Source: a plasmid
DNA length: 64,000 nt
Sequence record: NZ_CP044066.1
Direction: 5' to 3' (one strand)
The notes beneath the pieces were generated by a model. The model was not told the DNA's origin, did not search any database, and saw nothing but the letters and a program-made list of their open reading frames with translations. Shown piece after piece: positions 33,611-52,712 of the stretch (positions within the stretch are counted from its first letter, which is position 1; each line of letters opens with the position of its first letter). The position numbers were made by a program, and so were the translations under genes.

Positions 33611-33640
33611 GGGTCGATGCGTCAGAGACGCGGGTAAAAC
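33611..33640 (-). promoter_or_regulatory. conserved island dyad motif copy 1 (GGTCGATGCGTC-n3-GACGCGGGTAAAAC)
   Basis: ~85 bp upstream of start 33530; one of 6 copies (see finding). Confidence 0.55.
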
Positions 33641-33706
33641 CAGTTTTCGACAGCCGCGTGGGCTGTCGGAACATGGCTCTGCCAGGTTCAAAGGGTTGGC
33701 GTATGG

Positions 33707-35137
33707 CTACGCAAAGAGATCGTCAGTGAGCCAGTTCATCGCCGGTTCCGCGGCAGCCAGCGAAGGTGCCGCCGAATCCTTCGGTCCGGCGGTACCAGCG
33801 TCGAACTCCATGTCGACCAGACTGGCGACGACAGGCGGGCCAGTGACGACCTGCGCGGCGCGCTCCAACTGCACAGCCACCGCTTGCTCCGGCAATCCGC
33901 CAAGCACCCGATCGGCGATCGACTGTGCGTCTAGCGTCTCGAGCATCGACAGGCCGTCGATCAACGGATTTGCCTCCACGCCCGTCAGCTCACACCAGCG
34001 CGTAAGCTTCTCAGGCAACGTGGCCGCGCGGCTGATGCCTTCCGCACGGCTGCGCACCGCAGGCAGGACGCGCGCTTCCAGCTTGATCTCCGCACTGGCA
34101 CTGAACAGCGCCAGAATGGCGTCGCGATCGACCAGCTGGCGATGCTCCTCGTTGACCGTCCATCGTACCCGCACGAACTTGTCGGCGGCGCCTGCGGCGA
34201 CCTCGGTGAGCTTCACCATGTCTGGCGGACCATCGAAGTCCACGCATAGCGTCTCCCGCGCAGGCGTCTGCACCTGCGTGGCAGCGGCATGGCCAGGACT
34301 GACCTGCCATTGCAGATAGCCCTTCGCACCGATCTCGCCATAGTGGAAGCGCCCGATAGAACCCGGATACGCGACCACCCTGCCCTCACGCTCCCATTGC
34401 TGCGCGCGATGGATGTGGCCGAGCATAAATGCATCGCAGTCTGCGTCGAAGAGCGCACCAATGGTGAACTCGTGATCGAAGCCCGCCATTGGTACGCCAT
34501 GCTCGGTCTGGCAGCCGTTGACGGTGCCATGCGAGACCCCGATGGTGCGCACACCATGTGCCCGCCATAGACGATTGATGGCACCGGCGGCCCCAAGGTA
34601 GTCAGCCAGGTGATCGCCCACCGCTGTTGCTGCACTGGCGACGCCGGCAGCAGCTGCAAGCACCGCCTTGTTGACCGTAGGCACGCAGGTGAACACGACA
34701 TCGGGCGTGCCGCGCAGCGCAAGCAGGACTTCGATCTCCTCGGGAGCAAAGACGGCCCCATCCGACGGCACGAACTGCCCGTCGCAAAGCGCAACCTGAT
34801 GGATCCTATCCGCGACATACACGGGGTGTTGCGATCCGATCAGTCGGAATAGATCCAGCGTCCCGGGAGGTTCGTGACTGAACGTACCCTGCAGCATGAG
34901 TACCGGCATGTGCGCGGTCAGTTGGTGAATGCGCCGCGCGAGCGCCGAAAGCGCGGGCGTGTGAGCGTCGAGACGGTGATCGGTCGAATCGCCCGACACC
35001 ACACCGACGTGGCAACCGGCATCGATCGCGTCGCCGGCGGCGAAGCCGAAGCAGCGGTCAGCCTCGGCCAGGTGGCCCGGCGAATAATGCAAGTCCGAGA
35101 AATGGCCCACGAGCAGGCTCTCGCCTTCTTTGAGCAT
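33707..35137 (-). CDS. SbcD/Mre11-like calcineurin-type metallophosphoesterase (476 aa)
   Basis: Phosphoesterase motifs I-V: HFSDLHYS (DxH), VVSGDSTDH (GDxxD), GHIHRAQ; GGAGG RBS before ATG 35137; long C-terminal extension. Confidence 0.75.
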   Translation of the reverse strand: MLKEGESLLVGHFSDLHYSPGHLAEADRCFGFAAGDAIDAGCHVGVVSGDSTDHRLDAHTPALSALARRIHQLTAHMPVLMLQGTFSHEPPGTLDLFRLIGSQHPVYVADRIHQVALCDGQFVPSDGAVFAPEEIEVLLALRGTPDVVFTCVPTVNKAVLAAAAGVASAATAVGDHLADYLGAAGAINRLWRAHGVRTIGVSHGTVNGCQTEHGVPMAGFDHEFTIGALFDADCDAFMLGHIHRAQQWEREGRVVAYPGSIGRFHYGEIGAKGYLQWQVSPGHAAATQVQTPARETLCVDFDGPPDMVKLTEVAAGAADKFVRVRWTVNEEHRQLVDRDAILALFSASAEIKLEARVLPAVRSRAEGISRAATLPEKLTRWCELTGVEANPLIDGLSMLETLDAQSIADRVLGGLPEQAVAVQLERAAQVVTGPPVVASLVDMEFDAGTAGPKDSAAPSLAAAEPAMNWLTDDLFA

Positions 35138-35233
35138 GATGTACCTCCAAGGGAATGTGCCGGCATTGCGGCGAGAAAGGAAAAAGGGAAGCCGCATGGC
35201 TTCCCCTGAAGTGCCGGCACGAAGCTGGCGGAA

Positions 35234-36445
35234 TTACATGGAGACGTCTGCCGCGATTGCAGCAACCTGTTCGCGGAACGCGAACGGGTTGGTGAGCGCG
35301 GTGCGCATCTCCTCGAGCAGCGCGCGCACATCGTGATCGCGTTTGGTCCAGCCGCGGCCGAAGCTGGCCACAGCGTAGAGGCGGAGTTGGTCGCGGCCCT
35401 CCTGCGTCGCAAGGCCGAGACGGGCTACGAGATCCTCGAACTGGCTCTGGGTATCCTCATCCTCCGACGTCTCGGCAGGCGTTTGGCCCGACAGCTCTTC
35501 GCTGACGCGATCAGGCTGCGGTGGGTCTTCGTCGGTAGCAAGCGGCGATTCCAATGCCGCCACGGCCTGCGTCGCCAGCTCGAGGGCCGGGGCCGCTCGG
35601 TCAGAGCCGTCGAGAAGCGCGCCGATATCGATCTCAGCGTCCAGCGTGATGAGCCATTGCATCTGGCGCATCGCGTTGCCATTCTCATCGATCCGGCTGA
35701 TCTCGGCTTCCTGCTTCGACATCCAGAACTTGACGCCCACCAGCTTGCCACGTGCCATCGCGACGGTCTGCATGGCGGCATATGCCTTCTGCAGAACGTA
35801 GATGGAGCTTGTAGGCATCTCGATGAGGCCGAGCCCGAGGATGTGCGGGATCGAAAAGTAGAACTTGGCCGACAAATTACACGCCCCCGACTGGTACTGC
35901 GGGCATGCCTGCGGATCGCAGAGGCCGTCCGGGATGTGGTCATCCTGACGCAGGATGATCGTGCGGCCGCCAAACATTCGTCGGGCCCGGCTGGCGCGCT
36001 CGTCGCGCACTGGCGGCGCGTAGCGCTTGCAGTACCGCCGGCCATCGCTGCCGTACTCGGAGAAGTACTGGCGTCCGCTTGCGGTCCACGCAACGAGCTG
36101 GTTGGGCATGTTGCTCAGCCAGTCGTCGAAAGCGAAGATCACAGGAAAGCGCCACAGCCGATGACCCTGGCCGTCTCCACGGTCTTCACCGTAGCGCTGC
36201 ACGATGTCTTCTGCAACTGCCGGGTTCGCGAAGTCCGAACCGCGGCATGTGAACCACGGAACGTTCTTGGGATAAAGCGCGTTCTTGATTCCGGTGGCGC
36301 GCTGAATCTCAGTACCGATGTGCTCGAACGATTTGCCCTGCGCGAGCAGCGCGTCATGAATGGCAACGGCTTTGGCATTCTCGCGCGCAGTCTTGGTAAG
36401 TACCTTAATTCCAGGGCGAATGGTGCCGATGATTGGCGGCCGCAT
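35234..36445 (-). CDS. hypothetical protein (403 aa), first large gene of SbcD-containing operon
   Basis: complete ORF from ATG 36445 (MRPPIIGTIRPGIKVL...); acidic C-terminal tail (DEDPPQPDRVSEELSGQTPAETSEDEDTQSQFEDL); no recognised catalytic motif. Confidence 0.5.
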   Translation of the reverse strand: MRPPIIGTIRPGIKVLTKTARENAKAVAIHDALLAQGKSFEHIGTEIQRATGIKNALYPKNVPWFTCRGSDFANPAVAEDIVQRYGEDRGDGQGHRLWRFPVIFAFDDWLSNMPNQLVAWTASGRQYFSEYGSDGRRYCKRYAPPVRDERASRARRMFGGRTIILRQDDHIPDGLCDPQACPQYQSGACNLSAKFYFSIPHILGLGLIEMPTSSIYVLQKAYAAMQTVAMARGKLVGVKFWMSKQEAEISRIDENGNAMRQMQWLITLDAEIDIGALLDGSDRAAPALELATQAVAALESPLATDEDPPQPDRVSEELSGQTPAETSEDEDTQSQFEDLVARLGLATQEGRDQLRLYAVASFGRGWTKRDHDVRALLEEMRTALTNPFAFREQVAAIAADVSM

Positions 36446-36456
36446 GGGCCGCTCTT

Positions 36457-36759
36457 CTAGGAGGCTTCGGCGTTCGCCGGGCTCGCTGTAGGTGATGGGT
36501 GCATGCATGCGTTTCTCCTTTCCAGGAATTGAACGACAGCGGCACGGATCGACGCAGCATGCTCCCGAAGGCGCAGGGCTGTGTCGGCCCCGCGCTGGGT
36601 CGTTACGCGATTGAGGAAGGTCGCTTGCGCGGCTTCCGGGAGACTGGCGACGTGAGCCGCCTCACAAAGTGCGCGCCAGGCCTGCGGCATGTCCTTGTAC
36701 TGCGGACGGCGCAGATCCAGCGTTGCCGCAATGACGGCGGAAATCTCGTTCTGGTGCAT
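36457..36759 (-). CDS. hypothetical protein (~100 aa)
   Basis: AGGAG RBS 6 nt before ATG 36759; 11-nt gap to next gene. Confidence 0.4.
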   Translation of the reverse strand: MHQNEISAVIAATLDLRRPQYKDMPQAWRALCEAAHVASLPEAAQATFLNRVTTQRGADTALRLREHAASIRAAVVQFLERRNACMHPSPTASPANAEAS

Positions 36760-37418
36760 GAGCATCTCCTGAGGGTAGGAAGATCGAGGTCTCTCACCAG
36801 AAACAAAAAAAGCCCGCTCCGGATTTCTCCGGCAGCGAGCTTGTCGAGGTATGCACCAGCAATGCCACGCCCCTTCCGGGGGCGTGGCATCGAGGGAGCG
36901 GCGCGCCGATGCGCGCTGCTCTATGTTGAGGACGTAAAGTCGTCCTCGTGCAGCATGGTCACGCTGCACAACAACCCTTTTCGCGAACCCACAGGTTCGG
37001 CCGCAGGTTCACGGATCGGCCCGACGTCTGCCGTTCTGCCTAGGAGGGGCCTTTGAGAGAGATCCACATGGTCCCAGGCTCGAACGGTGTCCTGCGTGCG
37101 CTCATGAAGAGGCACAGCGAAGAACGCGTATTACGAGCTGATGAGGGGAAGTGTTCGGCGAAAACACTTAGCACAAGAGATATCCACACTGGTAGCCAAC
37201 CAGTCGGTGCGTGCGCATGTGCACGGCTTGATGCAGAAGATGGACTCGCCAGGAGTCGAGGTCGATGCGTCTGTGACGCGGGGTATGGGAAGCATTGTGG
37301 CAGATATTTAGTCGAATAAAAGGCAGAAAGCTCAGCAATTTCATATAGCTTTCTCGGCTCGACGACATGCATTTGTGGCGGACAATTTCAAACGAGAGAG
37401 TTCTACACGTATGGAAAA

Positions 37419-38051
37419 ATGGCCGAATCATCTGATCCCCACTTTCGGGGTACGGAGCCCGACGCTCAGCCGCAGTCGTCCGAATCTGACCGCAGCCCCC
37501 AAGGCAACAGCATTTCCTCCCAGTCACCGGCCTCGCCTGCCGGACCGAGGCCAATCCAACGGCTGCTCAGTCAGGATCGTGTCTCGCGAATCATTCCGGA
37601 CACTAACAGCACAGCGGTACTCAGCTATTGCTCGGACTTCGTTCGCGACTTCCTGCGCAGCGACTACCTGTTCTGCACCGCCAAGATGAGCGTCGCGACG
37701 AAAGGCAAGATTCTTGCGCTCGACAATCGCTTCCGCGATGCGAACGCGTGGATGGACGAGAAGCTGACGTGGGCAAGACGGCTACGCCCGCGCCTTATTA
37801 GTCTGCGCTATGACACGCGCGAGGTCGTGGTCACCCACTCGCTCGGTGGTCGTCTCGTCCGGCTGATGAATCAGCATGACCAACTTTTCGCGAACGTTCT
37901 TGGGGCGTACATGGGCGGAAAGATCGACGCCGCAGAAAAGGATAACGCGCTCTTGGGTGCGGGTCGCCACATTCGAGCGATTCACCGCCTCTGCATCCCC
38001 GACAACGATCGATTCTCCCGCGATGGCACGCTCATCGGGACGGACTGCTGA
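37419..38051 (+). CDS. hypothetical protein (210 aa)
   Basis: complete ORF after low-GC divergent intergenic region; Ser/Pro-rich N-terminus. Confidence 0.4.
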   Translation: MAESSDPHFRGTEPDAQPQSSESDRSPQGNSISSQSPASPAGPRPIQRLLSQDRVSRIIPDTNSTAVLSYCSDFVRDFLRSDYLFCTAKMSVATKGKILALDNRFRDANAWMDEKLTWARRLRPRLISLRYDTREVVVTHSLGGRLVRLMNQHDQLFANVLGAYMGGKIDAAEKDNALLGAGRHIRAIHRLCIPDNDRFSRDGTLIGTDC

Positions 38052-38073
38052 TCATCTCAATCTGAGGACACCC

Positions 38074-38703
38074 ATGGACTTTCAAGAGATTGCCCGGCTG
38101 CATAGCCGGTACAACGAGGCGCCGCTTATCATCGATATGCCCGCCGACGGCTCTGGCGCTCCGTTGCTACAAGCGCCCAACCAATCCACGCCTGCGCCTT
38201 CGAAGCCGTTCTGGACACGTCTGAGCGAAGCACAGCGCCTCGTCCTCGCGCTGCTTATCGTCGCCGGCATCGCGTTTCCCGTCGGCATGTTGGCCGCATC
38301 GGGGGGCAAGTACAACCGAGAGCTGGCCAGCGCGAGATCCGATGAAGCTATGAAGTCAACCCTGCGTGCGAGTAATCCGCCAGTCGAACGGGATCAAGCG
38401 TGGCCGGCGAAGACGCCGACGGCAGAGGCGGAGCCGATTCCGCAAGCACCCGTGCAATCTGAACCGCAAAGTCACCGCACCGACGCTAATCCCACGGCCG
38501 CCTCGGCGGTGATCGCCGGCCCAGCGAGTTCACCGTCCTCAGCGGTCGCCCCCGCGTCTATGCCCAAGCCTGCGGCAAAGGCACCGTCCGTCGCCGCGCG
38601 ACAAACTGCCGCCGCCGCGGCCGCTCCGCCTGCCCCTTCGGCAGCGAAAACGACGCCTCAGACCGACGACTCGCGGCGTGGCAACGAGATCAAACTATTC
38701 TGA
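38074..38703 (+). CDS. membrane-anchored Pro/Ala-rich protein (209 aa)
   Basis: GAGGA RBS before ATG 38074; one TM segment (LVLALLIVAGIAFPVGMLAASG); C-terminal low-complexity PAAKAPSVAARQTAAAAAAPPAPSAAKTTPQ; ends 10 bp before bactofilin gene. Confidence 0.45.
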   Translation: MDFQEIARLHSRYNEAPLIIDMPADGSGAPLLQAPNQSTPAPSKPFWTRLSEAQRLVLALLIVAGIAFPVGMLAASGGKYNRELASARSDEAMKSTLRASNPPVERDQAWPAKTPTAEAEPIPQAPVQSEPQSHRTDANPTAASAVIAGPASSPSSAVAPASMPKPAAKAPSVAARQTAAAAAAPPAPSAAKTTPQTDDSRRGNEIKLF

Positions 38704-38712
38704 AAAATCGCC

Positions 38713-39096
38713 ATGAAAACAGCAAACTTCAGTCTGATCCAGGCGGGCCTTAGTGTCGAAGGGAACATCATCGCTGACCATGGCCTGAGTTGCTTCGGCC
38801 TTGTCGGTGGCGATCTGCTGTCATCTGTCGGCCTGGTGCATGTGGGCGCCGAGGGCCTAGTTCGCGGGACCGTCCAGGCTGAGCACGTACTCGTCGATGG
38901 CACGGTCGAAGGCGATATTGTTGCCCGTGTCTCGTTGCACATCAACGGTCGAGTGAAAGGTCGAATCTCCTACGCTGGCACTATCCGGCTCGGCCCTAAC
39001 GCCATCCTCGAAGGCACGATCTCTCGAGTCTCAGGCGTCGGCTATGAGGCCCCGGGACCCGGCGCCGAAGCTCTCGAGGCGGCTCCCACGATATGA
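38713..39096 (+). CDS. bactofilin-family cytoskeletal protein
   Basis: 127 aa; repetitive beta-helical G-x-[VI]-x-G pattern (VEGNIIADHGLSCFGLVGGDLLSSVGLVHVGAEGLVRGTVQAEHVLVDGTVEGDIVA...) typical of DUF583/bactofilin. Confidence 0.7.
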   Translation: MKTANFSLIQAGLSVEGNIIADHGLSCFGLVGGDLLSSVGLVHVGAEGLVRGTVQAEHVLVDGTVEGDIVARVSLHINGRVKGRISYAGTIRLGPNAILEGTISRVSGVGYEAPGPGAEALEAAPTI

Positions 39097-39170
39097 AAAA
39101 GTGTAAGCATGCTCGACCTATTTCCGCAGTAAGCTCACATAAAACAATACTGTTTCAGCGGAATTAGGAC

Positions 39171-39206
39171 AAAAAAAGCCCGACGAACCATTTCGTCGGG
39201 CTTTTT
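39171..39206. terminator. bidirectional rho-independent terminator
   Basis: AAAAAAAGCCCGACGAACCATTTCGTCGGGCTTTTT. Confidence 0.7.
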
Positions 39207-39740
39207 CTAAGGCTGAGGCGTCATACTCACGCATTCTTCGATCGTGAAGAGCTTGGGAATTGTTACCCAAGGACCGCGGCGCCCCTGATCGTCTATGAAC
39301 GCGACGATAGGAAGGCGGCCATCGATCCGGCATTCGAACACTCGTGCACCGCGCACGCTATCGAAGATCGCGTAACGCACGCCATGGCAGATGACAAAGC
39401 TGAAGTCATCCTGCAGGATTCGCAACCCGGCACGGGCCGCAGATACGGGCAATGCCATGCCCTCCAACCAGTCGTCGAAGCCTAGGCCTGTGCGACCTCG
39501 TCGCGTCTCGGCAGACCATTCATCGACCCTGTTCCCCAGCCCTCGTCGTGGGAGATCGGAGATCTTTACTTCCAACGGTTCGGTAGTCAAGCGAGCCTCC
39601 ACGGCTGCGCCGCTCCCCCGCCAGAACGATTGCAGAATCTCCCGGCATCGCGCCGGTGCCAGTGCGAATAGACAGACAGCCAGTGCGATCTCGCAAATCA
39701 TGGCAATCTGTCCAACCATATTGTTCGTAGGGATTTGCAT
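39207..39740 (-). CDS. hypothetical membrane-anchored protein (178 aa)
   Basis: ORF with N-terminal TM (MVGQIAMICEIALAVCLFALAP); no SD; start lies 11 nt after an upstream terminator T-run, so expression is uncertain. Confidence 0.35.
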   Translation of the reverse strand: MQIPTNNMVGQIAMICEIALAVCLFALAPARCREILQSFWRGSGAAVEARLTTEPLEVKISDLPRRGLGNRVDEWSAETRRGRTGLGFDDWLEGMALPVSAARAGLRILQDDFSFVICHGVRYAIFDSVRGARVFECRIDGRLPIVAFIDDQGRRGPWVTIPKLFTIEECVSMTPQP

Positions 39741-39751
39741 AGCGTAGCCAG

Positions 39752-39780
39752 AAAAAAAAAGCCCCGGACTTAGCCGGGGC
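39752..39780 (-). terminator. rho-independent terminator after DUF932 gene
   Basis: minus strand: GCCCCGGCTAAGTCCGGGGC + T9. Confidence 0.6.
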
Positions 39781-39864
39781 ACACGCCTGAAACGACCACA
39801 TCAGTGCCTTTTTCATCGGCACATTCAGTGATCGCTTAAGACTCAGTAGAGGAAGACCTCGGGT

Positions 39865-40833
39865 TCAGGACAGGAGCTCGACGGCCGCATCCCAGGCCTT
39901 TTGCTTGAGCATCGCGCCGGCCCCGAACCACGCCGAATCCAGCCGATTGCCCGGATTGCGGGCACGCTGCTGGTGGTCAACGTACTCGGTCACGCTGTTC
40001 ACGAGGCCCCAGGCCGTACCGGCAGCGGATGGCAGGTTCGCCCCGCGGCCAGCGCCCTCGAAGAGATTGAGTACAGCCTTGAGACCGCGCTCGTTCATCT
40101 TCATGGGGCCATCTGCTTCCGGCTTTGCCCACTGATACGTGAACAGACGCTGGAAGAAGCGTTCGGACTCGCTCTGGCTAACCTTGCGATCAGCCAGCTC
40201 GTGCATGCGGACCATGAAGCCATCCCACGAGGAGATGGCGATGCCCAGCTGGTCTTTGACGGCCTGCGCGTCAAACTGGCTGCGATGCGGTACCTTCACC
40301 GCACCGCGGTCACGGCCGAGAGCAATTTGCAGGGTGTTATTGCAGACCACACGAACAGATGTGAACTGGGCAGTGGTGGCCAGAGTCCCATCGCAGGCGG
40401 TAGCGAGCAGCAGGTAACCTCGCACTTCATCGCCGCCGGCGAGCGTGGTCGACTGCCCCGTGCGCGCGAGCGCCCAGAGCTTGCGGCCACCCTTGAGCAC
40501 TCCAGCCGTTTCCAGCTGGTAGCCGCCGACTTCGGTGAGGTCGCGGTAGAACTCGAGCACCTGCGACGGTTGCACGACCTGATAGCGCTTCGACACGGTC
40601 GAGAGCGGCGCAAGCGTGTCCGAGCGATACAGCACCTTCTGCGCGGAGAACGCCTTCATGGCATCCAGCTCGTGAGAGCCGGCGCGGAACATGACGTCGG
40701 TCTCTTCGATGCGCCAGTTCATACCGGCGGCATCGGCCCAGACTTCGAGCGGCTGAAATGCTTCGAGTCGGTTGCCGAGGCCATGCCAGGGAGTTGCGCC
40801 AACATAAGCCATGGTTTGGACGAGATGAGACAT
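39865..40833 (-). CDS. DUF932-family protein (phage/plasmid-like, typical of ICEs and conjugative plasmids)
   Basis: 322 aa from ATG 40833; MSHLVQTMAYVGATPWHGLGN... N-terminus and length match the DUF932 (TIGR03299-like) family seen next to PRTRC cassettes. Confidence 0.65.
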   Translation of the reverse strand: MSHLVQTMAYVGATPWHGLGNRLEAFQPLEVWADAAGMNWRIEETDVMFRAGSHELDAMKAFSAQKVLYRSDTLAPLSTVSKRYQVVQPSQVLEFYRDLTEVGGYQLETAGVLKGGRKLWALARTGQSTTLAGGDEVRGYLLLATACDGTLATTAQFTSVRVVCNNTLQIALGRDRGAVKVPHRSQFDAQAVKDQLGIAISSWDGFMVRMHELADRKVSQSESERFFQRLFTYQWAKPEADGPMKMNERGLKAVLNLFEGAGRGANLPSAAGTAWGLVNSVTEYVDHQQRARNPGNRLDSAWFGAGAMLKQKAWDAAVELLS

Positions 40834-41114
40834 GGGATTGCTCCTGAAAATGGAATGACGCGAGCGCGGCGATGCCATAGGGCGCCGCCGATCGCGAGAC
40901 AAGAAGGAAGGAAGGAATGGAGTGCGCAACGAGCGAGGCGCCCCTTGCGAATGACGGATAGCGAACCGCGCGTGGCCCGGTTAGGGCGGCTGACGCGATA
41001 CGCCAAACGGCTACTGCGAGAAGGAAGGGTTCATGTGGGTGGAGTGATTCAGGCCCACGCGAGACGTCCCCAGCAGGGAGATGTCCCTGTGGGAAGTGGA
41101 AGGAAATGGCCGGC

Positions 41115-45726: not shown

Positions 45727-45804
45727 GGATAAGTGCTCCAGAGGATTGGCGGAGCACTCCCCTACGGGAGACGCCCCGCACGGGTTAGAAAGGGTTGGTT
45801 GGGT

Positions 45805-46515
45805 TCAGATTCCGGCGACTTCGCGTGCCAGTTGGTCGAGCATGGCTTCGACAATGCGCTCGCGTCGATGCTGCAACGCCAGCGCATTAAAGGTCGCATC
45901 GGAACTCAGGTGCGCAAGCGCATCCACGATGCCGACCCTGCTCTCCACCACTACGGCGACGCGGACGACATTCGGGCCGACTGGCGTCTTGCTTGCGATA
46001 CACAGGAGTGCCTCGAAGCGCGAGAGATCCAGCGCGTGCTGAAGCTCCATACGTTGTTCGACGTAACCGGCAATCAGGAAGGAGCAGAAAGCGGACTGGC
46101 CAACGTACGCGTCGGCGGCCAGCGACTGAATCCACTCCAGCACGGCGGGCCGCACGTTCACAAATAGCGGCTCGCCAGAGGGCACTCGGTCAACTTCCGA
46201 CAGCTTCCAACCCCAGTCCGGGCCGATGGTATAGAACTCCATCATCTTGCCATCGATGACCTGAGGCGAGACGTCAAACCACGTCACGCGCCCATCCTCG
46301 ACCAGCGCGAACGCGTTCCGGCTCTTGTCGAAGCTCAGGCTGCGTATGTATTGGCACAACTGCAGGCCTTCGTGCCGCGTGAACAAAGGCGCTCGGAGTG
46401 GTTGCCAAGGCTTCCCGTTCGAGAATGCGATAGCGACCACGGGCATCCGCTGGCACGTCACAAAGATGCGACGTAGGGCCAGAGGCGATTGAGATTCAGC
46501 AACAGAGATACTCAT
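45805..46515 (-). CDS. hypothetical protein (236 aa)
   Basis: ATG 46515 (MSISVAESQSPLALRRIFV...); downstream of motif copy 5. Confidence 0.45.
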   Translation of the reverse strand: MSISVAESQSPLALRRIFVTCQRMPVVAIAFSNGKPWQPLRAPLFTRHEGLQLCQYIRSLSFDKSRNAFALVEDGRVTWFDVSPQVIDGKMMEFYTIGPDWGWKLSEVDRVPSGEPLFVNVRPAVLEWIQSLAADAYVGQSAFCSFLIAGYVEQRMELQHALDLSRFEALLCIASKTPVGPNVVRVAVVVESRVGIVDALAHLSSDATFNALALQHRRERIVEAMLDQLAREVAGI

Positions 46516-46596
46516 GAATGTGCTCCAAAAAAAGTGGAGCACTCCGCCAGGGCAGGTGCCCCAACGGGTTGAGAAAGATGTGTGGCCATGGCCACG

Positions 46597-46623
46597 AAGT
46601 CGATGCGCCTATGGCGCGAGGTG
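46597..46623 (-). promoter_or_regulatory. conserved island dyad motif copy 5 (variant)
   Basis: AAGTCGATGCGCCTATGGCGCGAGGTG; palindrome preserved by compensatory GCGCC..GGCGC. Confidence 0.45.
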
Positions 46624-46711
46624 TGGCGGCATCTTAGCAGCCAGGTACGCGCGATTGCAACGGTGCCACATAAGAAAAAGGCCACTCTCGACGTGAGTCG
46701 AGAGTGGCTGT

Positions 46712-47506
46712 TCAAACGGTCTGGCGCGACTTGCGCTTCTTCGGGGCGTTCAGCGTGTAGCCAAAGCGTTCCCATGCTGCAGGATCGACGGGCAGAGGAC
46801 TTGTCCTGCCCGTTGCGAGGTTCACGAAGGCGCCGCAAAACTGCAGCGTGCCTGTACGGAACAACGTCCACAGCAGGTTGTAGGCCTGCACCGCGATCGC
46901 CATGTTGATAACGAGCGACTGCTTCTGCAATGCCTCCGCCATCGAGCAGGACGGCGCGGCGTCCGCCTTGTCCCCTTTCGGGTCCAGCAGCTGCGGATAC
47001 AGATCGCCAACGTGCGGCAGACGCTCCGTTGCCTTGCCGCGGACTTGGCCGAGAATTACCTGACCGTCGTCCGCGTTGTTGCCGCAGTCGAGGTAGTAGC
47101 CACCGGTGCCGCGCTGCATGGCGTCCACGATCGCCTTGCGGGCGGCGCGGCTATCGACACAGCCAATGACCATGTCACACGCAAGGCGGTCAGCAGAGCC
47201 GATCCGCTGGACATGCGCTTCCCAGCGCGTACCCATCAGGTTGTTGAGCCGGTTCACGATCAGCGGCGCCTTGTGCTGGCCGACGTCGACCGGATAAAAG
47301 CCCTGCCGGCCGACGTTGGTCTCGCTGACCGTATCGTCATCGTAGACCGTACAGTCAATGCCACCGGGGTGTCCGAGTTCGAGCATCGCATGATGCAAGC
47401 GCGCGAGATTCGGCAACAGCGCACTGCCAGTACCGCCGGCACCGACTACCACGACACGCCAGGCCCGTCTCAGCATATGCTCAGGAATGCGATGAACATA
47501 CGTCAT
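46712..47506 (-). CDS. PRTRC-system ThiF-family (E1-like) protein
   Basis: VVVVGAGGTGSALLPNLARL Rossmann/ThiF motif, CVDSRAARKAI; GGAGG RBS before ATG 47506; last gene of PRTRC operon. Confidence 0.8.
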   Translation of the reverse strand: MTYVHRIPEHMLRRAWRVVVVGAGGTGSALLPNLARLHHAMLELGHPGGIDCTVYDDDTVSETNVGRQGFYPVDVGQHKAPLIVNRLNNLMGTRWEAHVQRIGSADRLACDMVIGCVDSRAARKAIVDAMQRGTGGYYLDCGNNADDGQVILGQVRGKATERLPHVGDLYPQLLDPKGDKADAAPSCSMAEALQKQSLVINMAIAVQAYNLLWTLFRTGTLQFCGAFVNLATGRTSPLPVDPAAWERFGYTLNAPKKRKSRQTV

Positions 47507-48144
47507 ACCGCAACCTCCGCCCGTGCAGCCGCGTACCACTCAAACGGGACCTTCTCGACGTTCTCGAAGATCCCCTTGGCGCACAGCCTCAGCGCCAGCG
47601 ATGGCACCACGGCGTTGCAGCTACCCATGACGAACGCGAACTTCACGTCGTGGCGGTCGTCCGTATCATCGGTAGACGAGAAGAATGCCGGATGGCCACC
47701 ATGAGAGTGGCAGTCCACCACCAGCACTTCGTCATCCGCCAGCGTGGGGCGTTCGTACTTCAGATGGCCCATCCCCTGATCCAGCACTCGCACGGGCATC
47801 AACCGAAACGCATGCGTGCGACAGTTCCAGACCACGAAAGCGCCCGTCTCGTTGGGATACGCAGCGCGCGCCATCACCGCGAACTCACCAATGACGTCTG
47901 GCGGGACACAACCGCAGAGCAACTCCGTCACCTCCACCGCCTCACCGTACGGAATGGCGGTGCGATGCTCGAACTTACCAAGGAGACGGACGACGCGAAT
48001 CCATGGCCGCACGATCTCAAGAAACACCCCATTGGCAGCGATGAGCAGTCGCTCACCGGAGCCACCCATGGGAGCAACCTCGCCGAAGCGCGGCACCATC
48101 ACGGAGGGAAACGATTGCTGCAATGCCATATCGGCAGGATGCAT
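47503..48144 (-). CDS. PRTRC-system protein A (JAB/MPN metalloprotease domain)
   Basis: JAMM motif VVDCHSHGGHPAFFSSTDDTDD (HxHx7Sx2D) with upstream Glu; overlaps ThiF start by 4 nt. Confidence 0.75.
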   Translation of the reverse strand: MHPADMALQQSFPSVMVPRFGEVAPMGGSGERLLIAANGVFLEIVRPWIRVVRLLGKFEHRTAIPYGEAVEVTELLCGCVPPDVIGEFAVMARAAYPNETGAFVVWNCRTHAFRLMPVRVLDQGMGHLKYERPTLADDEVLVVDCHSHGGHPAFFSSTDDTDDRHDVKFAFVMGSCNAVVPSLALRLCAKGIFENVEKVPFEWYAAARAEVAV

Positions 48145-48146
48145 GA

Positions 48147-48866
48147 TTAATTCTCCAGTTTGCCGGCGATCAGATCGGCCAGCTTCCATTTCATAGGGAC
48201 GAGAACCTGCTTCGGAAAGTCAGCGAACTGACCATCGAGCATGTCCTTCCAGAAAGCAAAAGCACCGCGCTCGTACTCGACGCGCCTGGTGCCGTGATTC
48301 GGATGAGTGAAGGCGGAGTTAAAGAAGCCCTCCTCCCAGCCGGCGATTGAGGCGACGTCGATCTGCTTCGGTACGTGTGCGGTGCCGATGCAGATCCGCC
48401 CGCGGTCCCACGTGTTGAAGTACGGCGGCTCGAACAGCGCGCTGCCCGGCACCGGACGTTCTTCGTCCTGCAGCGCGAAAACGCTGAAGCCGGCATGAGA
48501 CGCCTGAAACACCAACGCGGGATGCGGCACGATCGCGTTGCGCTGCCCCAGCTCTTTGCAATCGAAGAACACGCGGCGCTTCGCTGCCGGACACCACCAC
48601 GTCACGGCCTCGGTGCTGACTGAAAGCACGTTCGGTGTCAGGAACTCGCCCTTGGGTAACGCATGCTCTGCAATTTCACGAACGGCGTGAAAAACAGCAT
48701 CGCGGTTGAGCGGAACGCCGGCGCCAAGAATCGGCTGCCCGGTAGGGGTGGTCTCGATGCGGTGCGCGGTACCGTAGGAAAACTCGCCGGGCCGTGAGCC
48801 ATAAAGCAAAATGGCCCCCTGAAGAGCCACGTCATGCGACCGCGATGCGGTCTGAAGTTCGGCCAT
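48147..48866 (-). CDS. PRTRC-system protein B candidate (239 aa)
   Basis: position and size in the ParB-E-C-F-B-A-ThiF order; no independent motif. Confidence 0.5.
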   Translation of the reverse strand: MAELQTASRSHDVALQGAILLYGSRPGEFSYGTAHRIETTPTGQPILGAGVPLNRDAVFHAVREIAEHALPKGEFLTPNVLSVSTEAVTWWCPAAKRRVFFDCKELGQRNAIVPHPALVFQASHAGFSVFALQDEERPVPGSALFEPPYFNTWDRGRICIGTAHVPKQIDVASIAGWEEGFFNSAFTHPNHGTRRVEYERGAFAFWKDMLDGQFADFPKQVLVPMKWKLADLIAGKLEN

Positions 48867-48878
48867 GTGGCCCTCCTT

Positions 48879-50012
48879 TCATAAGAGATGCTCGAGCATT
48901 CGATCCAGTGCAGCGATCAGCTCAAGGGTGTTTTCAAGAACTGCGTATTGCTTGCGAATTGCAGCAGGCTTGCTAGCCAGGGGAATGAAGCACTGGAAGT
49001 ACGTCGCAAAGCCACCCCCGCTTGCGCACTCGTAGTGGTCATCCAGCACTTCACCGACGTAGTCGCTATCCGCGTATGCGATCGTCGCCGCGGAATAGGC
49101 AGGCTCGGCCCATTGGGAGTTGGCCAGCAGCGAGCCCTTTCCCAGATGCTCCAGAGCGAGGTCGAGATCAGCAAGCGCGCCGCACAGCTTCCCGCGCCAG
49201 TCCTTCGGGCCGCGTCGTGCCAGCTCACGGAGCCGCCGCCGGCTCAACGCGGACAATTTCCTGTCCTTCTGCATCCAGGCATGTTTTGGCAGCGACTCGT
49301 CAGGCGCCAACTCCGGCCGAACCACCGACGGCAGGCAACGCTCGATATCCGAGTCGCCCTCCCCGAACCGCTCCGCAAGGCACTCACGCGCCGCGTTGTC
49401 GTCAGTGAGTGCCTCGAAGTCCCAATGCCAGCGCGCGAACATATCGAGCAGGTCGTCCGGTGTACGTACGTACAGCGATTTACCGGTCGCCGCACGAATG
49501 AGATGGAACAAGGTGTATATGAGGCAGGGATGCAGACTGCGCAATGCCTCGGCGCGTTCGGTCGTGAGCGTGTAGACGTTTTCTTCTTCGAGCCGTATGC
49601 CAAGGTAGAGCGCCGACTCCTCGCGCGGGTCCCAGCCGAACTCGGAGAGTTCATTTAGGACGCTGGCATGGTCAACCAGAACAAAGTCGAACTTCAGTGC
49701 TCGGGTCTTCGGCAGGCGCGGACCGAGCCATGCATTGAAGCCCTGCGCGAACGCGTCGCCAGCAGAATGCGGGGACACGACGGCCTCAGTGTCGAGCACC
49801 CCCGCGCGGAACTGCGCGATGACGAATTCCTTCAGATCGGCCTCGTCTCCGTAGTTCAGAAGACCGTGTGCGGGTACGACTGGCGGCAGCGCCGGCAGCG
49901 TCAGAAAATCATGGGCAGGTCGATGTCTGGCAACGGGATGTTGTCGCGCAAACGACCATCCGGGTTGCCCTCCATCGAGCGCTGGAACAGACGACCGAGG
50001 ATCGAACAGCAT
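48879..50012 (-). CDS. PRTRC-system protein F candidate (377 aa)
   Basis: position in cassette; GAGGAG RBS before ATG 50012 placed immediately after an internal terminator. Confidence 0.5.
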   Translation of the reverse strand: MLFDPRSSVPALDGGQPGWSFARQHPVARHRPAHDFLTLPALPPVVPAHGLLNYGDEADLKEFVIAQFRAGVLDTEAVVSPHSAGDAFAQGFNAWLGPRLPKTRALKFDFVLVDHASVLNELSEFGWDPREESALYLGIRLEEENVYTLTTERAEALRSLHPCLIYTLFHLIRAATGKSLYVRTPDDLLDMFARWHWDFEALTDDNAARECLAERFGEGDSDIERCLPSVVRPELAPDESLPKHAWMQKDRKLSALSRRRLRELARRGPKDWRGKLCGALADLDLALEHLGKGSLLANSQWAEPAYSAATIAYADSDYVGEVLDDHYECASGGGFATYFQCFIPLASKPAAIRKQYAVLENTLELIAALDRMLEHLL

Positions 50013-50032
50013 TGTTGAGTCTCCTCAGAATG

Positions 50033-50056
50033 AAAAAAAACCGCCCTTCCGGGCGG
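50033..50056 (-). terminator. intra-operon intrinsic terminator between PRTRC C and F
   Basis: minus strand: CCGCCCGGAAGGGCGG hairpin + T8, immediately followed by GAGGAG RBS of next gene. Confidence 0.55.
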
Positions 50057-50097
50057 CTCAGTGGTTGTGGGGAACTGGCCAGCGGCCAGTGCCTTCA

Positions 50098-50328
50098 TCA
50101 GGTCAGCTTTGCGCATGCCGCGCCCTTGGCGCCGGCGGCGCGCACGAACGTGTAACGGGCAATCCCGTCCTTCACCTCCGGGCCGTCCACCGCAGCGGTG
50201 GTCAACTCGGGGTACTGGGCGGAATAAACGTCGCGCACCTGGTCCGGAGTGAACTGCGGACCCACGTCGACAAACGTCATGCCGTTGTAGGAGAACTGAC
50301 GGATCAGCTTGATGACTTCGAGTGCCAT
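50098..50328 (-). CDS. PRTRC-system protein C candidate (76 aa, small ubiquitin-size protein)
   Basis: perfect AAGGAG RBS before ATG 50328; 76 aa MALEVIKLIRQFSYNGMTFVDVGPQF...; track ORF hugely over-extended. Confidence 0.55.
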   Translation of the reverse strand: MALEVIKLIRQFSYNGMTFVDVGPQFTPDQVRDVYSAQYPELTTAAVDGPEVKDGIARYTFVRAAGAKGAACAKLT

Positions 50329-50338
50329 GACAGTCTCC

Positions 50339-50794
50339 TTACAGCAGCGATGAGAGGTCGGTGCCCGAAGACACCGGCGTGGTGGTCGGCGCAGCTTCCG
50401 ATCCGGCCTGTGCTTCACCCGTTGCCGGGGTAGCACCTTCCGTATCGTCGTCCGCGTCATCGTCATCGTTCGGCTTCGACGGCGTGGCCGCTTTCGCCAG
50501 CGCCTTCGTTGCCTTCGACGACTGGGTGGTCTTGGCCGCGTCGAGGATCGACTTCGTTGCTTCAACCTGCTCGGCAAGCGAGCGGTGCGAAGCAGTGACG
50601 CCCGCAACCGCAGCCGCAAACTCGCCGTCCAACTCCACGGGTGTCGCCGACAGCGAAAGAGGAGTGGTCAACGCAGCATCCGCAGCGCTCTTGATGACCG
50701 GAAGCACAACGACGGACATGCTGTCGCCCTGCATCGTGAGCGTAATGACCACCTTGTCGCTCGCGCGTACGAGCGGTACCAATTCAGTGAACAT
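50339..50794 (-). CDS. PRTRC-system protein E candidate (151 aa, acidic low-complexity C-terminus)
   Basis: position after ParB-like gene; C-terminal KPNDDDDADDDTEGATPATGEAQAGSEAAPTTTP. Confidence 0.5.
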   Translation of the reverse strand: MFTELVPLVRASDKVVITLTMQGDSMSVVVLPVIKSAADAALTTPLSLSATPVELDGEFAAAVAGVTASHRSLAEQVEATKSILDAAKTTQSSKATKALAKAATPSKPNDDDDADDDTEGATPATGEAQAGSEAAPTTTPVSSGTDLSSLL

Positions 50795-50871
50795 GGTGAA
50801 TCCTTTTGAGGGAATAGGAAGACAGATGGGCGCCGGCGGCGCCCATCTGCAGAGTGGAGAGTGAATCCCGG

Positions 50872-52554
50872 TCAGCAGCCCAGCACTTTGGGCACCTTGC
50901 CGGTGTAGTCGAAGCCCTCGACCGCCAGAAGACCGGCGACGACTTCGGCCTTCGACTTGTTGAACAGCTTGGCGAACCCATCGCCCAGCGCCTTGCGAAT
51001 GCCCAGCTCGTCCGCGAGCACCTTCATTTCGGACTTAGTGAGCATCTCCAGGAAGTCCTGCGACTTCTGCAGGTTCCAGTGCAGCTTGAGGTCAAGCTTG
51101 TGATAGCGGCAAAGGTCACGAAGATTCGTGACCTCCATGCCGTCAATCGCCGCCACAGTCAGCGCGACGGTCAGCTGATGACGCTTGCCGTCGTCCAGCG
51201 ACTGCACGGCGCCAAGGCAGCCTTGCAGGGTCGAAGACGCCTTCTGCTCGGTCAGCTTCTCGAAGATCTTGCCCATCTTGTCGCCGGCGATGTTGCGCGC
51301 CAGTCCGCTCAGAGCGATCGAGATCAGATACGAGTTGGCCAGCGCAGCGTTCTGCGCGACTTCCTTGCGCAGGGCCTTACGCCAGAGATCGGTCCGATAG
51401 GCCTTGACCTTCTCCGACTCGCTGATCGACGTCACGGGTTTCTCGGTCGGTACAGCGGCTTTGCCGTCCCCCTTGGCGGGAGCCGACTTGCCTGCACCAG
51501 GTGCGCTCGCCGCAGGCTTCTGCGCTGCCGCTTTCGCGTCGCGCTCCGCCTTGAGTCGGGCGGCAACCTTCTCGGAATTGCAGACCGTGTCGAAGCACTG
51601 GCCACCATAGACCTTGCCGAGAGATCCCGGGAGGCCGCTCACCGCGGCGCCAAAATTCTGGCAGCCGTGGCAGGCCTTCGCCTGTTCCTCGCCAACCCCG
51701 GTCGGGCCATCGACCAACAACTGGACGCGAGTCTCGTTGTCGCCCGCGCGAACGATGCGGATGACCTGGTACTCGTCCTTCAGCCCGTAGGCAATGCCTT
51801 CGAGCTTTCGATCGGTCTTCTCGGTGTAGCAGGCGCGATTGGTACAGTTGCCCGTCGCGATTGCCTCGCCGAACATCTCCGTCTGCAACGAGGAATTGTG
51901 CTGGCAGGTGGTGCATTGCGCCTTATCGAAGATCGCCTTCTCAAGGCTGCACGCGGCGGCCTCGATCGTCTTCTTCAGTTCGGCAACAGGCTTTTTCTCG
52001 CTCACAATGACAGGCAGCAGCTTGTCCTGCGTGCCCTTCTCGAGCGTTGCCAGCAGTTCGGCATGGCCGAGCTGAATTGTGCGGGTGTTGAGCGATTCCA
52101 GAACGGTTTCGCTGCAGTTCATCAGCGCCAGGCGCTTGTCGAGCGTCGATCGCGACCAGCCTAGCTGACGAGCCGCCTCATCGCGGTCGCCCTGCAGCCA
52201 GCCGACGATCTTAGCCGCTTGCACCGCCTCCTCGGAGGGGGCCATGTCGGCACGCTGGATATTCTCGATGAGCGCAAAGCTATCTGCTTCGGCATCGGTC
52301 ATAACTTTGATGATGACCGGGACGGGATAGCCTTCGCCGTGGGCCGCAAGGGCTGCGCGGTAGCGGCGTTCACCTGCCACGACCTCGTACTCACGGCCGC
52401 CCTCGTCTTCTTCGACAGGGCGAATCAGGATGGACTGAAGCACACCATTGACCCGGACGGACTCGGTGAGCTCGCCCATTTCGGCAGGATCGAAGTACTT
52501 GCGCGGATTACGGCCAGGACGGATCTTGCCAACAACTACGGTGGGAGTTTGCAT
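50872..52554 (-). CDS. ParB/Spo0J-family nuclease-like protein (PRTRC ParB-related protein), 560 aa
   Basis: ParB N-terminal box GVLQSILIRPVEED..EYEVVAGERRYRAALAA (GERR motif), HTH region, long Cys-rich C-terminal extension (CTTCQHN, CTNRAC, CHGCQNFG, CFDTVC); ATG 52554. Confidence 0.85.
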   Translation of the reverse strand: MQTPTVVVGKIRPGRNPRKYFDPAEMGELTESVRVNGVLQSILIRPVEEDEGGREYEVVAGERRYRAALAAHGEGYPVPVIIKVMTDAEADSFALIENIQRADMAPSEEAVQAAKIVGWLQGDRDEAARQLGWSRSTLDKRLALMNCSETVLESLNTRTIQLGHAELLATLEKGTQDKLLPVIVSEKKPVAELKKTIEAAACSLEKAIFDKAQCTTCQHNSSLQTEMFGEAIATGNCTNRACYTEKTDRKLEGIAYGLKDEYQVIRIVRAGDNETRVQLLVDGPTGVGEEQAKACHGCQNFGAAVSGLPGSLGKVYGGQCFDTVCNSEKVAARLKAERDAKAAAQKPAASAPGAGKSAPAKGDGKAAVPTEKPVTSISESEKVKAYRTDLWRKALRKEVAQNAALANSYLISIALSGLARNIAGDKMGKIFEKLTEQKASSTLQGCLGAVQSLDDGKRHQLTVALTVAAIDGMEVTNLRDLCRYHKLDLKLHWNLQKSQDFLEMLTKSEMKVLADELGIRKALGDGFAKLFNKSKAEVVAGLLAVEGFDYTGKVPKVLGC

Positions 52555-52683
52555 TTGTGGGTTCTCGCGGAAATGGGGAACCCGTTGCCGCACCGGGAAC
52601 GTGGTTCCCGATGGGATCGAAAGGCGAACTGCCAGGCTATGCCGGCGAGTCGCTTACTACAGATGCTGGCACCTTGCGGTGCA

Positions 52684-52712
52684 GGGTCGATGCGTCTTGG
52701 ACGCGGTAGGTG
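52684..52712 (-). promoter_or_regulatory. conserved island dyad motif copy 6 upstream of PRTRC operon
   Basis: GGGTCGATGCGTCTTGGACGCGGTAGGTG, ~130 bp upstream of ParB-like start. Confidence 0.55.

Follow-up and report, generated by a model that had tools for sequence, protein, structure and literature searches.

A repeated dyad element of Cupriavidus megaplasmids, best read as the beginning of a structured leader RNA on the transcripts of establishment genes

Results

Seven Copies of a Dyad Element in a Plasmid Backbone Block

A stretch of 64,000 nucleotides from a plasmid (sequence record NZ_CP044066.1) was analyzed and is called the window in the following. The genes at 29-53 kb of the window lie on the minus strand, and only two plus-strand genes (37876-39096) interrupt them. 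Many of the minus-strand units are preceded by a short dyad element. An exact pattern scan with GTCGATGCG-N7-CGCG yielded seven copies, all seven of them on the plus strand, with starts at 33613, 37261, 41129, 44507, 45211, 46599, and 52686. On the gene strand (minus) the element has the form C-GCGTC-NNN-GACGC-ATCGAC, i.e., its 20 bases comprise a hairpin and a tail. A sequence-only reading had described six copies. All six exist, but a seventh one (37261-37280) had been overlooked, and the second begins at 41129, not at 41115. Two classes were distinguished on the gene strand, which are listed here with the downstream genes.

52686-52705, minus strand: copy G, class 1, CGCGTC CAA GACGC ATCGAC, upstream of ParB/PRTRC (covariance model match 52678-52713, 46.2 bits, E 1.4e-11)
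46599-46618, minus strand: copy F, class 1, CGCGCC ATA GGCGC ATCGAC, compensated stem GCGCC/GGCGC, upstream of the 236/245-aa gene
45211-45230, minus strand: copy E, class 1, CGCGTC TCA GACGC ATCGAC, upstream of the SlyB-like lipoprotein gene
44507-44526, minus strand: copy D, class 2, promoterless, upstream of the 127-aa/156-aa genes
41129-41148, minus strand: copy C, class 2, CGCGGC TTT GCCGC ATCGAC, compensated stem GCGGC/GCCGC, upstream of DUF932
37261-37280, minus strand: copy B, class 1, CGCGTC ACA GACGC ATCGAC, at the head of a long leader that contains an sbcD RNA
33613-33632, minus strand: copy A, class 2, upstream of a 176-aa gene and the SbcC-like gene

Eight matches were found when one mismatch was allowed. 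The expectation was 0.91, and 100 dinucleotide-preserving shuffles all stayed below eight. A 36-nt covariance model recovered the same seven copies in the window with E values from 1e-9 to 1e-11, and the next match had an E value of 3. Within the window, all seven copies fall into 19 kb, and the remaining 45 kb are free of the element. The dyad element is real, beyond chance, and not a repetitive extragenic palindromic (REP)-like repeat, which had been named as the possibility to be checked: the copies are confined to the block and have one orientation, both in the window and in the 171 kb of the plasmid pMOL28 of C. metallidurans CH34, in scans that did not extend to host chromosomes. The compensatory changes of the inner arms that had been claimed (GCGTC/GACGC, GCGGC/GCCGC, GCGCC/GGCGC) were found upon reading the sequence, and the distances to the downstream start codons also agreed: four copies lie 83-92 nt away, and the remaining ones lie at about 200 nt or beyond. 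The flank CGCGGGT[AG]AAAC, which had been described as generally conserved, is present in three copies (33613, 41129, 44507), but the other four have promoter-derived flanks.

Class-1 Copies Follow Strong Promoters with Mapped Starts

The four class-1 copies have a sigma-70 promoter at a fixed distance on their 5' side, usually with an extended -10 element (TGnTAnnAT). The -10 element ends 13-14 nt before CGCG, and the same distance was observed in dozens of homologues. The promoters in the window are the following.

52718-52746, minus strand: promoter of copy G, sigma-70, TTGAAA-17-TATTCT; predicted start A at 52711, 6 nt before CGCG (scan)
46631-46660, minus strand: promoter of copy F, TTGCAA-18-TG-c-TAAGAT, extended -10; predicted start A at 46624 (sequence read)
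45243-45272, minus strand: promoter of copy E, TTGCTG-18-TG-c-TACCAT; predicted start A at 45236
minus strand: promoter of copy B, extended -10 TGcCACAAT; predicted start 37286

Experimental start sites were taken from the Cappable-seq analysis of strain CH34 by Große et al. 2022 (PMC9045368, Table S1), which comprises 5,763 starts and uses the same pMOL28 coordinates. All seven class-1 copies of pMOL28 had a start exactly 6 nt 5' of CGCG, and all seven starts were classed as strong or medium RpoD promoters (PMC9045368). Their transcription start sites (TSS) and ranks are as follows.

TSS_137004-5, rank 28 of 5,763: ssb operon
TSS_90669-5, rank 34 of 5,763: parB2; homologue of the promoter of copy G
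TSS_83384-5, rank 39 of 5,763: slyB; homologue of the promoter of copy E
TSS_93740-5, rank 47 of 5,763: Rmet_6245
TSS_84558-5, rank 102 of 5,763: Rmet_6234; homologue of the promoter of copy F
TSS_130858-5, rank 899 of 5,763: Rmet_6399
TSS_75119-5, rank 1119 of 5,763: Rmet_6222, with the start 316 nt upstream of the gene; homologue of the promoter of copy B

Because the mapped starts are 6 nt upstream of CGCG, the element occupies positions +7 to +26 of the transcript, and because these starts are among the most enriched ones in plasmid-carrying cells, the promoters are active there and not silenced. The element lies between the mapped start and the start codon, i.e., in the 5'-untranslated region (5'-UTR), in pMOL28 and, by homology, in the window. 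The 5' end of a class-1 RNA consists of about seven G-free unpaired bases, followed by a first hairpin of 5 bp (HP1, GCGUC-N3/4-GACGC) and the invariant sequence AUCGAC.

The Stem of HP1 Is Kept by Compensatory Changes

In the seed alignment the pairing of HP1 was kept in 99.7% of the cells, and none of 500 shuffles reached its covariation score. Two of the five pairs covary, both of them proximal to the loop (UA -> CG, GC, UG; CG -> UA, UG). Searches with the covariance model revealed stem variants beyond the seed pattern, namely GCGCC/GGCGC, which is present at no fewer than three paralogous sites that are independent of each other, and also GCGCU/AGCGC, GCGCA/UGCGC, and GCUCG/CGAGC. Together with the stem GCGGC/GCCGC, these variants are compensatory changes that keep the structure of HP1. 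The loop has 3 or 4 nt and a variable sequence; at least eight copies have a 4-nt loop, and one form has 4 bp and a 4-nt loop. The one-base change of the spacing and the concerted changes of both arms suit a hairpin, which is favored for this reason over a site for a dimeric DNA-binding protein. HP1 is not an intrinsic terminator, as in the seed alignment the stem is followed by AUCGAC and never by a U-run.

Deviations from Watson-Crick pairing were used as an indication of the strand. In HP1, five pairs were G·U when read on the gene strand and none was A·C; the loop-closing pair was mismatched in two cases. The ratios of G·U to A·C were 5:0 for HP1, 5:1 for the second hairpin (HP2), 3:0 for one group of the third hairpin (HP3), and 16:13 for HP3 overall. 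A likeness of the antisense strand (GTCG...hairpin...GGGTAAAAC) to a repeat of the clustered regularly interspaced short palindromic repeats (CRISPR) type or to an RNA anti-CRISPR was considered and rejected, because the AAAC tail is confined to class 2 and the mapped transcription is that of the other strand.

One further site in pMOL28 (134295-134332, minus strand) has the sequence CCTGT-TTT-ACAGG-CATCGAC just before the gene for a zinc-ribbon/Toprim primase. Its stem is wholly different and its tail is the same; the match to the model is not significant (E = 1).

Class-2 Copies Lack a Promoter and Follow Terminator-Like Hairpins

The class-2 copies (44507, 41129, 33613) have no -10 element. 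They lie inside operons and have instead a long imperfect hairpin directly on their 5' side.

44536-44567, minus strand: terminator-like 14-bp hairpin followed by GUUUUCACC, located after the stop codon of the slyB-like gene and directly before copy D
41152-41196, minus strand: imperfect long hairpin ending in GAGUUUUACC, directly 5' of copy C, its A/G-tract pairing with the U-tract (z = -2.45)
33636-33680, minus strand: long imperfect hairpin ending in UGGUUUUACC, directly 5' of copy A (-26.7 kcal/mol, z = -4.19)

The stems have 14-20 bp, and the z-scores are -4.2, -2.5, and -2.5. At the 3' end of each hairpin a U-run (GUUUUACC) is paired with an upstream A/G-tract, which gives it the shape of an intrinsic terminator, including the terminator-like U-run. 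As the three sequences are unrelated to each other, they are regarded as structures and not as protein-binding sites. Activator sites or single-stranded DNA (ssDNA) promoters were rejected as explanations of these hairpins (the palindromes are unrelated, the stems too short, and there is no -10-like hexamer), and a sigma-54 or extracytoplasmic function (ECF) promoter in the element or in the class-2 flanks was rejected upon reading the sequence, based on inconsistent -24/-12 and -35/-10 spacing.

Around the three class-2 copies of pMOL28 (82670, 78877, and 71409), of which the one at 82670 is the homologue of copy D, no start is listed in the Cappable-seq data at a distance of up to about 20 nt (PMC9045368). 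Promoterless copies account for three of the seven copies in the window and for three of the ten in pMOL28. They nevertheless retain the complete leader, including the G-free lead-in of about 7 nt.

The Element Is Followed by Further Hairpins

The conserved part is followed by three additional hairpins (HP2 to HP4), which were located in the window as follows.

HP2, minus strand: 45190-45207 (copy E), 46582-46595, 41109-41122, 44486-44503, 52669-52682, 37243-37257; 2-6 nt after ATCGAC, then a pyrimidine run
HP3, minus strand: 45149-45172 (copy E), 46544-46567, 44454-44482, 41067-41095, 33560-33586; CCCA..GGG(A/C)-loop-(G/U)CCC..GGG
HP4, minus strand: 45117-45148 (copy E), 46520-46542, 44423-44450, 33534-33558; the 3' arm is the Shine-Dalgarno sequence, the loop is pyrimidine-rich, and AUG follows 3-6 nt later

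HP2 was present in 110 of 132 distinct leaders (83%), compared to 18 +/- 3.5 (14%) in shuffles, and begins 2-3 nt after AUCGAC. It is GC-rich and of arbitrary sequence, and contained five G·U and one A·C. It is followed by a G-poor pyrimidine run with the consensus C-A-N-C-U-Y-Y-U-U, whose U content gives it a terminator-like appearance in 31 of 111 leaders. The antitermination motif boxA (GCTCTTTA) was not enriched after HP2: with two mismatches 31 leaders matched, compared to 35 +/- 4.7 in shuffles, and with one mismatch none did.

Only short blocks of HP3 recur across the leaders (CCCA..GGG, UCCC..GGG). In one orthologue group three G·U pairs are invariant, and an A·C mismatch or a bulge is frequently found beside the CCC/GGG helix. 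The HP3 pattern may represent a second recognition element. HP4 buries the ribosome-binding site, and its pairing of the Shine-Dalgarno sequence is kept in all ten sequences of one orthologue group. The leaders of copies E, F, D, and A measure 117, 109, 110, and 108 nt between the predicted 5' end of the RNA and the start codon.

Two open reading frames (ORFs) overlap these structures. The 245-aa ORF begins with GTG 46542 inside HP4, and an ATG supported by a Shine-Dalgarno sequence is present at 46515 (236 aa). A 219-aa ORF (33015-33674) overlaps copy A, and its likely start is ATG 33530 (171 aa); for the Pfam and NCBIfam scans described below, a 176-aa frame (33015-33545) was used for this gene.

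The Element Is Widespread in Megaplasmids of Burkholderiales

The co-located block had been called an island. Megablast analysis confirmed a coherent block, but showed that a plasmid backbone fits better, namely the ParB/PRTRC-DUF932-SbcCD-like backbone of Cupriavidus megaplasmids such as pMOL28 and pHG1 (C. necator H16). Among the 32 plasmid records that matched, 24 were typed as conjugative, and pMOL28 was typed as MOBH/MPF_T. A scan of a genome collection with the PRTRC E1 protein retrieved 25 loci, many of them on plasmids, from Cupriavidus, Ralstonia, Burkholderia, Paraburkholderia, and Pararobbsia, and one distant locus from Bacteroidales. The pattern search found 94 copies in these loci, all on the gene strand. 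When the 36-nt covariance model was applied to a total of 722 kb, comprising the window, the E1 loci, and the complete plasmid pMOL28, about 124 matches with E < 0.01 were obtained in 29 related loci, again all on the gene strand and with a clear score gap above the noise.

The plasmid pMOL28 contains ten copies, all at 71-137 kb and in gene orientation, and none elsewhere in its 171 kb. They head the sbcCD-like, DUF932, slyB, and parB2/PRTRC units, an integrase-domain gene, the ssb-primase operon, and Rmet_6245, a hypothetical gene two genes upstream of an N6-methylase gene, with one intervening gene on the same strand. The search of the whole plasmid with the covariance model detected no copy in the metal-resistance, pilus, or type IV secretion system (T4SS) sectors. 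The proposal that the element marks one regulon is borne out by these results, as it heads seven units in the window and ten in pMOL28, and all of these copies lie in the establishment block and in gene orientation.

The commonest 20-mer occurred in at least 120 metagenomic stretches. Among the matches listed, 43 of 126 exact copies were of the leader type by strict flank criteria, and the others were coincidences in GC-rich coding sequence, e.g., in histidine-kinase genes. Five matches in viral contigs were all coincidences in coding sequence and were discarded. The genes behind leader-type copies encode SlyB-like proteins (23 loci), ParB (22), the 127-aa protein (19), the 245-aa protein (11), and AAA/MoxR ATPases (10); further families are DUF932, N6-methylases, DUF3717, and the zinc-ribbon/Toprim primase. 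Depending on the plasmid, the orthologous leaders downstream of PRTRC E1 precede genes for at least two proteins that are unrelated to each other (MSISVAES..., MNKKSLNQ...), which suggests an exchange of gene cassettes while the leader stays constant. Across paralogues and genera, the 19-20 nt of HP1 and AUCGAC are nearly invariant, while HP2 and the promoter hexamers vary.

Gene Content of the Block and Searches for a Regulator

The Pfam domains and the Rfam match of the block are the following.

50872-52593, minus strand: ParB-family protein with Fis-type HTH_8 (Pfam)
46712-50619, minus strand: PRTRC ubiquitin-like/E2/JAB/E1 cassette (Pfam)
45388-45726, minus strand: DUF3085 (Pfam)
44646-45119, minus strand: glycine-zipper (SlyB-like) lipoprotein (Pfam)
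39865-40929, minus strand: DUF932 (Pfam)
36853-37007, minus strand: sbcD RNA, RF01757 (Rfam, 148.8 bits, E 3e-29), in the same 5'-UTR, 254 nt downstream of copy B
35234-36508, minus strand: Gp3-like protein (Pfam)
33707-35197, minus strand: metallophosphatase (Pfam)
30703-33027, minus strand: SbcC-like ATPase (Pfam)

The sbcD RNA is an orphan 5'-UTR motif of Burkholderiales. Rfam 15 contained no family that covers any copy of the element: a scan of the window at gathering threshold returned sbcD only, and a scan of 33300-53000 at E <= 5 was equally negative for the copies. A full-text literature search with the motif string retrieved only unrelated primers, no description of the leader was found in the searchable literature and databases, and the publications consulted on the C. 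metallidurans transcriptome do not mention the element.

The regulator-type domains that were seen are the Fis-type HTH_8 in ParB and in the integrase-domain protein. Other regulators are chromosomal-type LysR and GntR/MocR proteins in the flanks of the window and an FlhC-like activator outside the block. A sequence search of the Protein Data Bank (PDB) with two conserved proteins of unknown function revealed no RNA-binding, NusG, ProQ/FinO, or ANTAR domain.

The two plus-strand genes at 37876-39096 lie between copy B and the DUF932 gene. At the equivalent position pMOL28 has three plus-strand genes, one of which encodes a bactofilin-like "polymer-forming cytoskeletal protein". The ParB-PRTRC operon contains two internal terminator-like hairpins (50822-50850 and 50038-50059, minus strand), one of them with a strong U-run. 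As neither a promoter nor a motif follows these hairpins, the distal PRTRC genes would need read-through. The plasmid-type block stops abruptly at about 52.8 kb, beside a GntR/aminotransferase (MocR-type) gene, and is devoid of the ssb, primase, methylase, FlhC-like, and T4SS sectors that are present in pMOL28. The remainder of the window contains catabolic or chromosomal-type genes, and no transfer genes, NusG-like gene, or tRNA were found there. It also contains a short phage-integrase fragment (3148-3774) and three tandem HSP20 genes (21751-23409).

Discussion

A Leader RNA That Would Define an Establishment Regulon

The best reading of the element is that it forms the opening part, conserved in sequence, of a structured leader RNA that spans about 110 nt at the 5' end and is common to the establishment genes of pMOL28/pHG1-type megaplasmids. 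HP1 and AUCGAC would be the docking site on the RNA for a conserved trans-acting factor, which could be a protein or an RNA and could be encoded by the plasmid or the host. After initiation, this factor would set the fate of the mRNA of each cistron, via stability that depends on the 5' end, via translation controlled by the leader, or both, and about ten otherwise unrelated operons would thereby be joined in one establishment regulon. The class-2 copies would represent the same module behind an intercistronic terminator or processing site, so that each cistron would have a copy of its own. Such a module, acting on single cistrons, is favored because the class-2 copies keep the complete leader with its G-free lead-in in the absence of a promoter. 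For the RNA-level reading as a whole, i.e., a previously undescribed cis-acting leader module that docks a conserved factor and defines the regulon, we regard the chances as about even.

Several observations weigh against it. The three outer pairs of HP1 are invariant in the seed alignment, having been fixed by its selection pattern. The antisense strand of the whole leader folds more stably than the sense strand (-45.2 vs. -42.1 kcal/mol), which is probably due to the G-rich composition of the antisense strand, and the mismatches of HP3 show no G·U bias (16 vs. 13). Because these whole-leader folds and overall HP3 counts lend no support, the case for the sense strand depends on the mapped starts together with HP1, HP2, and a single group of HP3. 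The mapped starts come from pMOL28 and apply to the window by homology, and the TSS score behind their ranks is an enrichment ratio after clustering within +/-5 nt, not a measure of abundance (PMC9045368). A comparison of the leader sequences revealed no conserved pairing between AUCGAC and the ribosome-binding site, and a route from HP1 to translation was not seen. Pfam and NCBIfam scans detected no RNA-binding, NusG, ProQ/FinO, or ANTAR domain in about 70 proteins encoded by the window and by the backbone of pMOL28, the backbone proteins scanned numbering about 60.

The docking partner of HP1-AUCGAC might also be a universal host machine. The sequence could be an RNA polymerase-binding element of the put type that acts independently of a factor, or a 5'-end tag that floods an RNA-binding or RNA-degrading factor of the host. 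In the latter case the leaders of about ten highly TSS-enriched promoters would be abundant trans-acting decoy RNAs that aid the newly arrived plasmid. We consider such a host-directed role a doubtful proposition.

Alternative Explanations

The strongest alternative is antitermination or anti-Rho activity, in which nascent HP1-AUCGAC-HP2, either alone, as HK022 put, or together with a factor, as lambda nut/N and pLS20 conAn, would modify RNA polymerase soon after it leaves the promoter so that it reads through internal terminators. The fixed promoter-proximal position (+7 to +47) behind very strong promoters, the two hairpins side by side, and the terminator-like hairpins within operons (50850-50822, 50059-50038) and before each class-2 copy would all be in accordance with this. 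The extreme conservation across genera would suit a universal partner such as RNA polymerase, and the G-poor C/U-rich linker resembles a Rho loading site. The location of the class-2 copies after terminators is, however, difficult to reconcile with antitermination, because a modified polymerase would need no further element there and an unmodified polymerase would not arrive. In addition, the loop of HP1 is variable, unlike that of boxB, boxA is not enriched in the leaders, and no NusG/RfaH/N/Q-like gene was found among the scanned proteins. Overall, we regard this mechanism as rather unlikely.

The sequence-only reading had offered the operator of a dimeric regulator and a hairpin in the 5'-UTR as the two possibilities. 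By analogy to KorB, ArdK, and the ribbon-helix-helix (RHH) protein of p576, a plasmid repressor, e.g., the PRTRC ParB-like protein, might bind the dyad at +7 to +26 of the DNA and limit the establishment promoters of the resident plasmid. The dyad of 13 bp lies across the beginning of the transcribed region at several promoters of the same regulon, a ParB-family gene with a helix-turn-helix motif heads the block, and repeated operators before establishment operons have precedents in CUP/ArdK of IncN plasmids (PMC6289460) and in EGeRS2 of p576 (PMC8708921). Several results argue against an operator. The promoters are among the most enriched starts in plasmid-carrying cells and hence are not silenced, the arms are spaced by 3 or 4 bp and change together, with G·T as the only intermediates, the conserved tail is asymmetric, and a promoter or start is missing from three of seven copies in the window and from three of ten copies in pMOL28. 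Judged from its sequence, the element does not seem to have the fixed half-sites, the fixed spacing, and the constant promoter association of an operator. Between the two possibilities, the mapped starts, the covariation, the loop of 3 or 4 nt, and the promoterless copies speak for the hairpin, and a rigid dimeric operator, which keeps some residual probability, appears unlikely.

A passive expression cassette, i.e., a 5' stabilizer and a translation-tuning structure spread by duplication with no dedicated reader of HP1, would explain the modular nature and nearly constant length (108-117 nt) of the leader before unrelated genes, the variable gene content behind orthologous leaders in different plasmids, and the lack of a candidate factor among the scanned proteins. 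But HP1 and AUCGAC are nearly invariant, in contrast to HP2 and the promoter hexamers, which can vary freely; a purely structural stabilizer would leave the sequence unconstrained, and gene conversion would homogenize the flanks as well. A passive cassette is therefore judged to be quite improbable.

A signal in ssDNA during conjugative entry (a priming site of the zinc-ribbon/Toprim primase, an ssDNA promoter, or a recombination site) is suggested by the apparently strand-specific hairpin with its conserved tail and 3-nt loop, typical of sites recognized in ssDNA, by the leading-region-like content of the block (ssb, primase, methylase), and by the (G)GGTC at the beginning of the antisense strand, but is highly improbable, as the fixed distance to a canonical duplex sigma-70 promoter and a mapped start has no role in priming, hairpins of 5 bp are far too short to rebuild -35 and -10 elements as in Frpo, and the G·T wobbles are on the coding, non-template strand.

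Comparison with Known Systems

The switching of establishment genes, which serve anti-restriction, the handling of ssDNA, and partition-like systems, is known for few model plasmids, namely from the ssDNA promoters of F/ColIb, the repressor-operator circuits of IncN, IncP, and p576, and the unexplained EGeRS1. The leader would add another solution to establishment control, and it would do so in megaplasmids of Cupriavidus, Ralstonia, and Burkholderia that are of environmental and biotechnological importance, such as pMOL28 and pHG1. It is accessible to experiments, as start maps have been published, the plasmid-free strain AE104 exists, and an element of 20 nt is open to mutation and compensation. 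Moreover, it provides a sequence tag for establishment genes, including unknown candidates for anti-defence functions, in plasmid and metagenome data, and it places the orphan sbcD RNA of Rfam in a defined transcript and regulon. The sbcD RNA shares with the element that it is a Burkholderiales 5'-UTR motif of the same gene block, on the transcript of copy B; it has, in contrast, a different structure of 155 nt and occurs in a single copy.

The KorB operator OB of the IncP plasmid RK2 is an invariant perfect palindrome that is found at variable distances from many backbone promoters. The 13-bp dyad in many backbone promoter regions and the nearby ParB-family protein are common features, whereas the leader element has covarying arms, a spacing of 3 or 4, an asymmetric tail, and the fixed position at +7. 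The sites nut of phage lambda (boxA/boxB), put of HK022, and conAn of pLS20 are promoter-proximal antitermination RNA hairpins. They resemble the leader in their position close to the promoter, in having an adjacent conserved linear box, and in heading long operons with terminators. In contrast to nut, which combines boxA GCUCUUUA with a hairpin of conserved loop, the leader has a variable loop, no enrichment of boxA, no N/Q/NusG-like gene that could be found, and copies located after terminators. In Frpo-type ssDNA promoters of the leading regions of F and ColIb, a long hairpin rebuilds the -35 and -10 elements in ssDNA (summarized in PMC8708921). Like Frpo, the leader is a structured and apparently strand-specific element upstream of leading or establishment genes, but the promoters of the leader are duplex sigma-70 promoters with mapped starts, and HP1 has a stem of only 5 bp that lies downstream of +1.

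The closest concept is that of EGeRS1 and EGeRS2 of the pLS20 family, for which a conserved sequence repeated upstream of variable establishment operons in one plasmid sector was described as an "establishment regulon" (Val-Calvo et al. 2021, PMC8708921). EGeRS1 comprises 400-750 bp, is rich in inverted repeats, has no strong promoter, and acts by an unexplained mechanism, and in donors an RHH protein keeps the promoters of EGeRS2 under strict repression (PMC8708921). The likeness lies in a repeat that tags a regulon upstream of establishment operons in one sector, and in the conjugative plasmid pMOL28 one sequence likewise heads the parB2/PRTRC, slyB, DUF932, and ssb operons, Rmet_6245, and others. 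The sequences are, however, not related, the EGeRS hosts are Gram-positive, and the core of the leader has 20-26 nt and is located at +7 to +26 of active strong promoters. The CUP (conserved upstream) repeats of the IncN plasmid pKM101 are located before leading-region genes and contain double-stranded DNA sites for the repressor ArdK (Delver & Belogurov 1997, cited in PMC6289460). They also are repeated upstream elements, which tie the genes to one regulator, but the leader element is transcribed, forms a covarying hairpin, and occurs also without a promoter. Taken together, the description that suits the leader best is that of a new and widespread RNA module in the 5' leaders of establishment genes on megaplasmids, and its element works as a regulon tag like EGeRS and CUP but belongs to neither.

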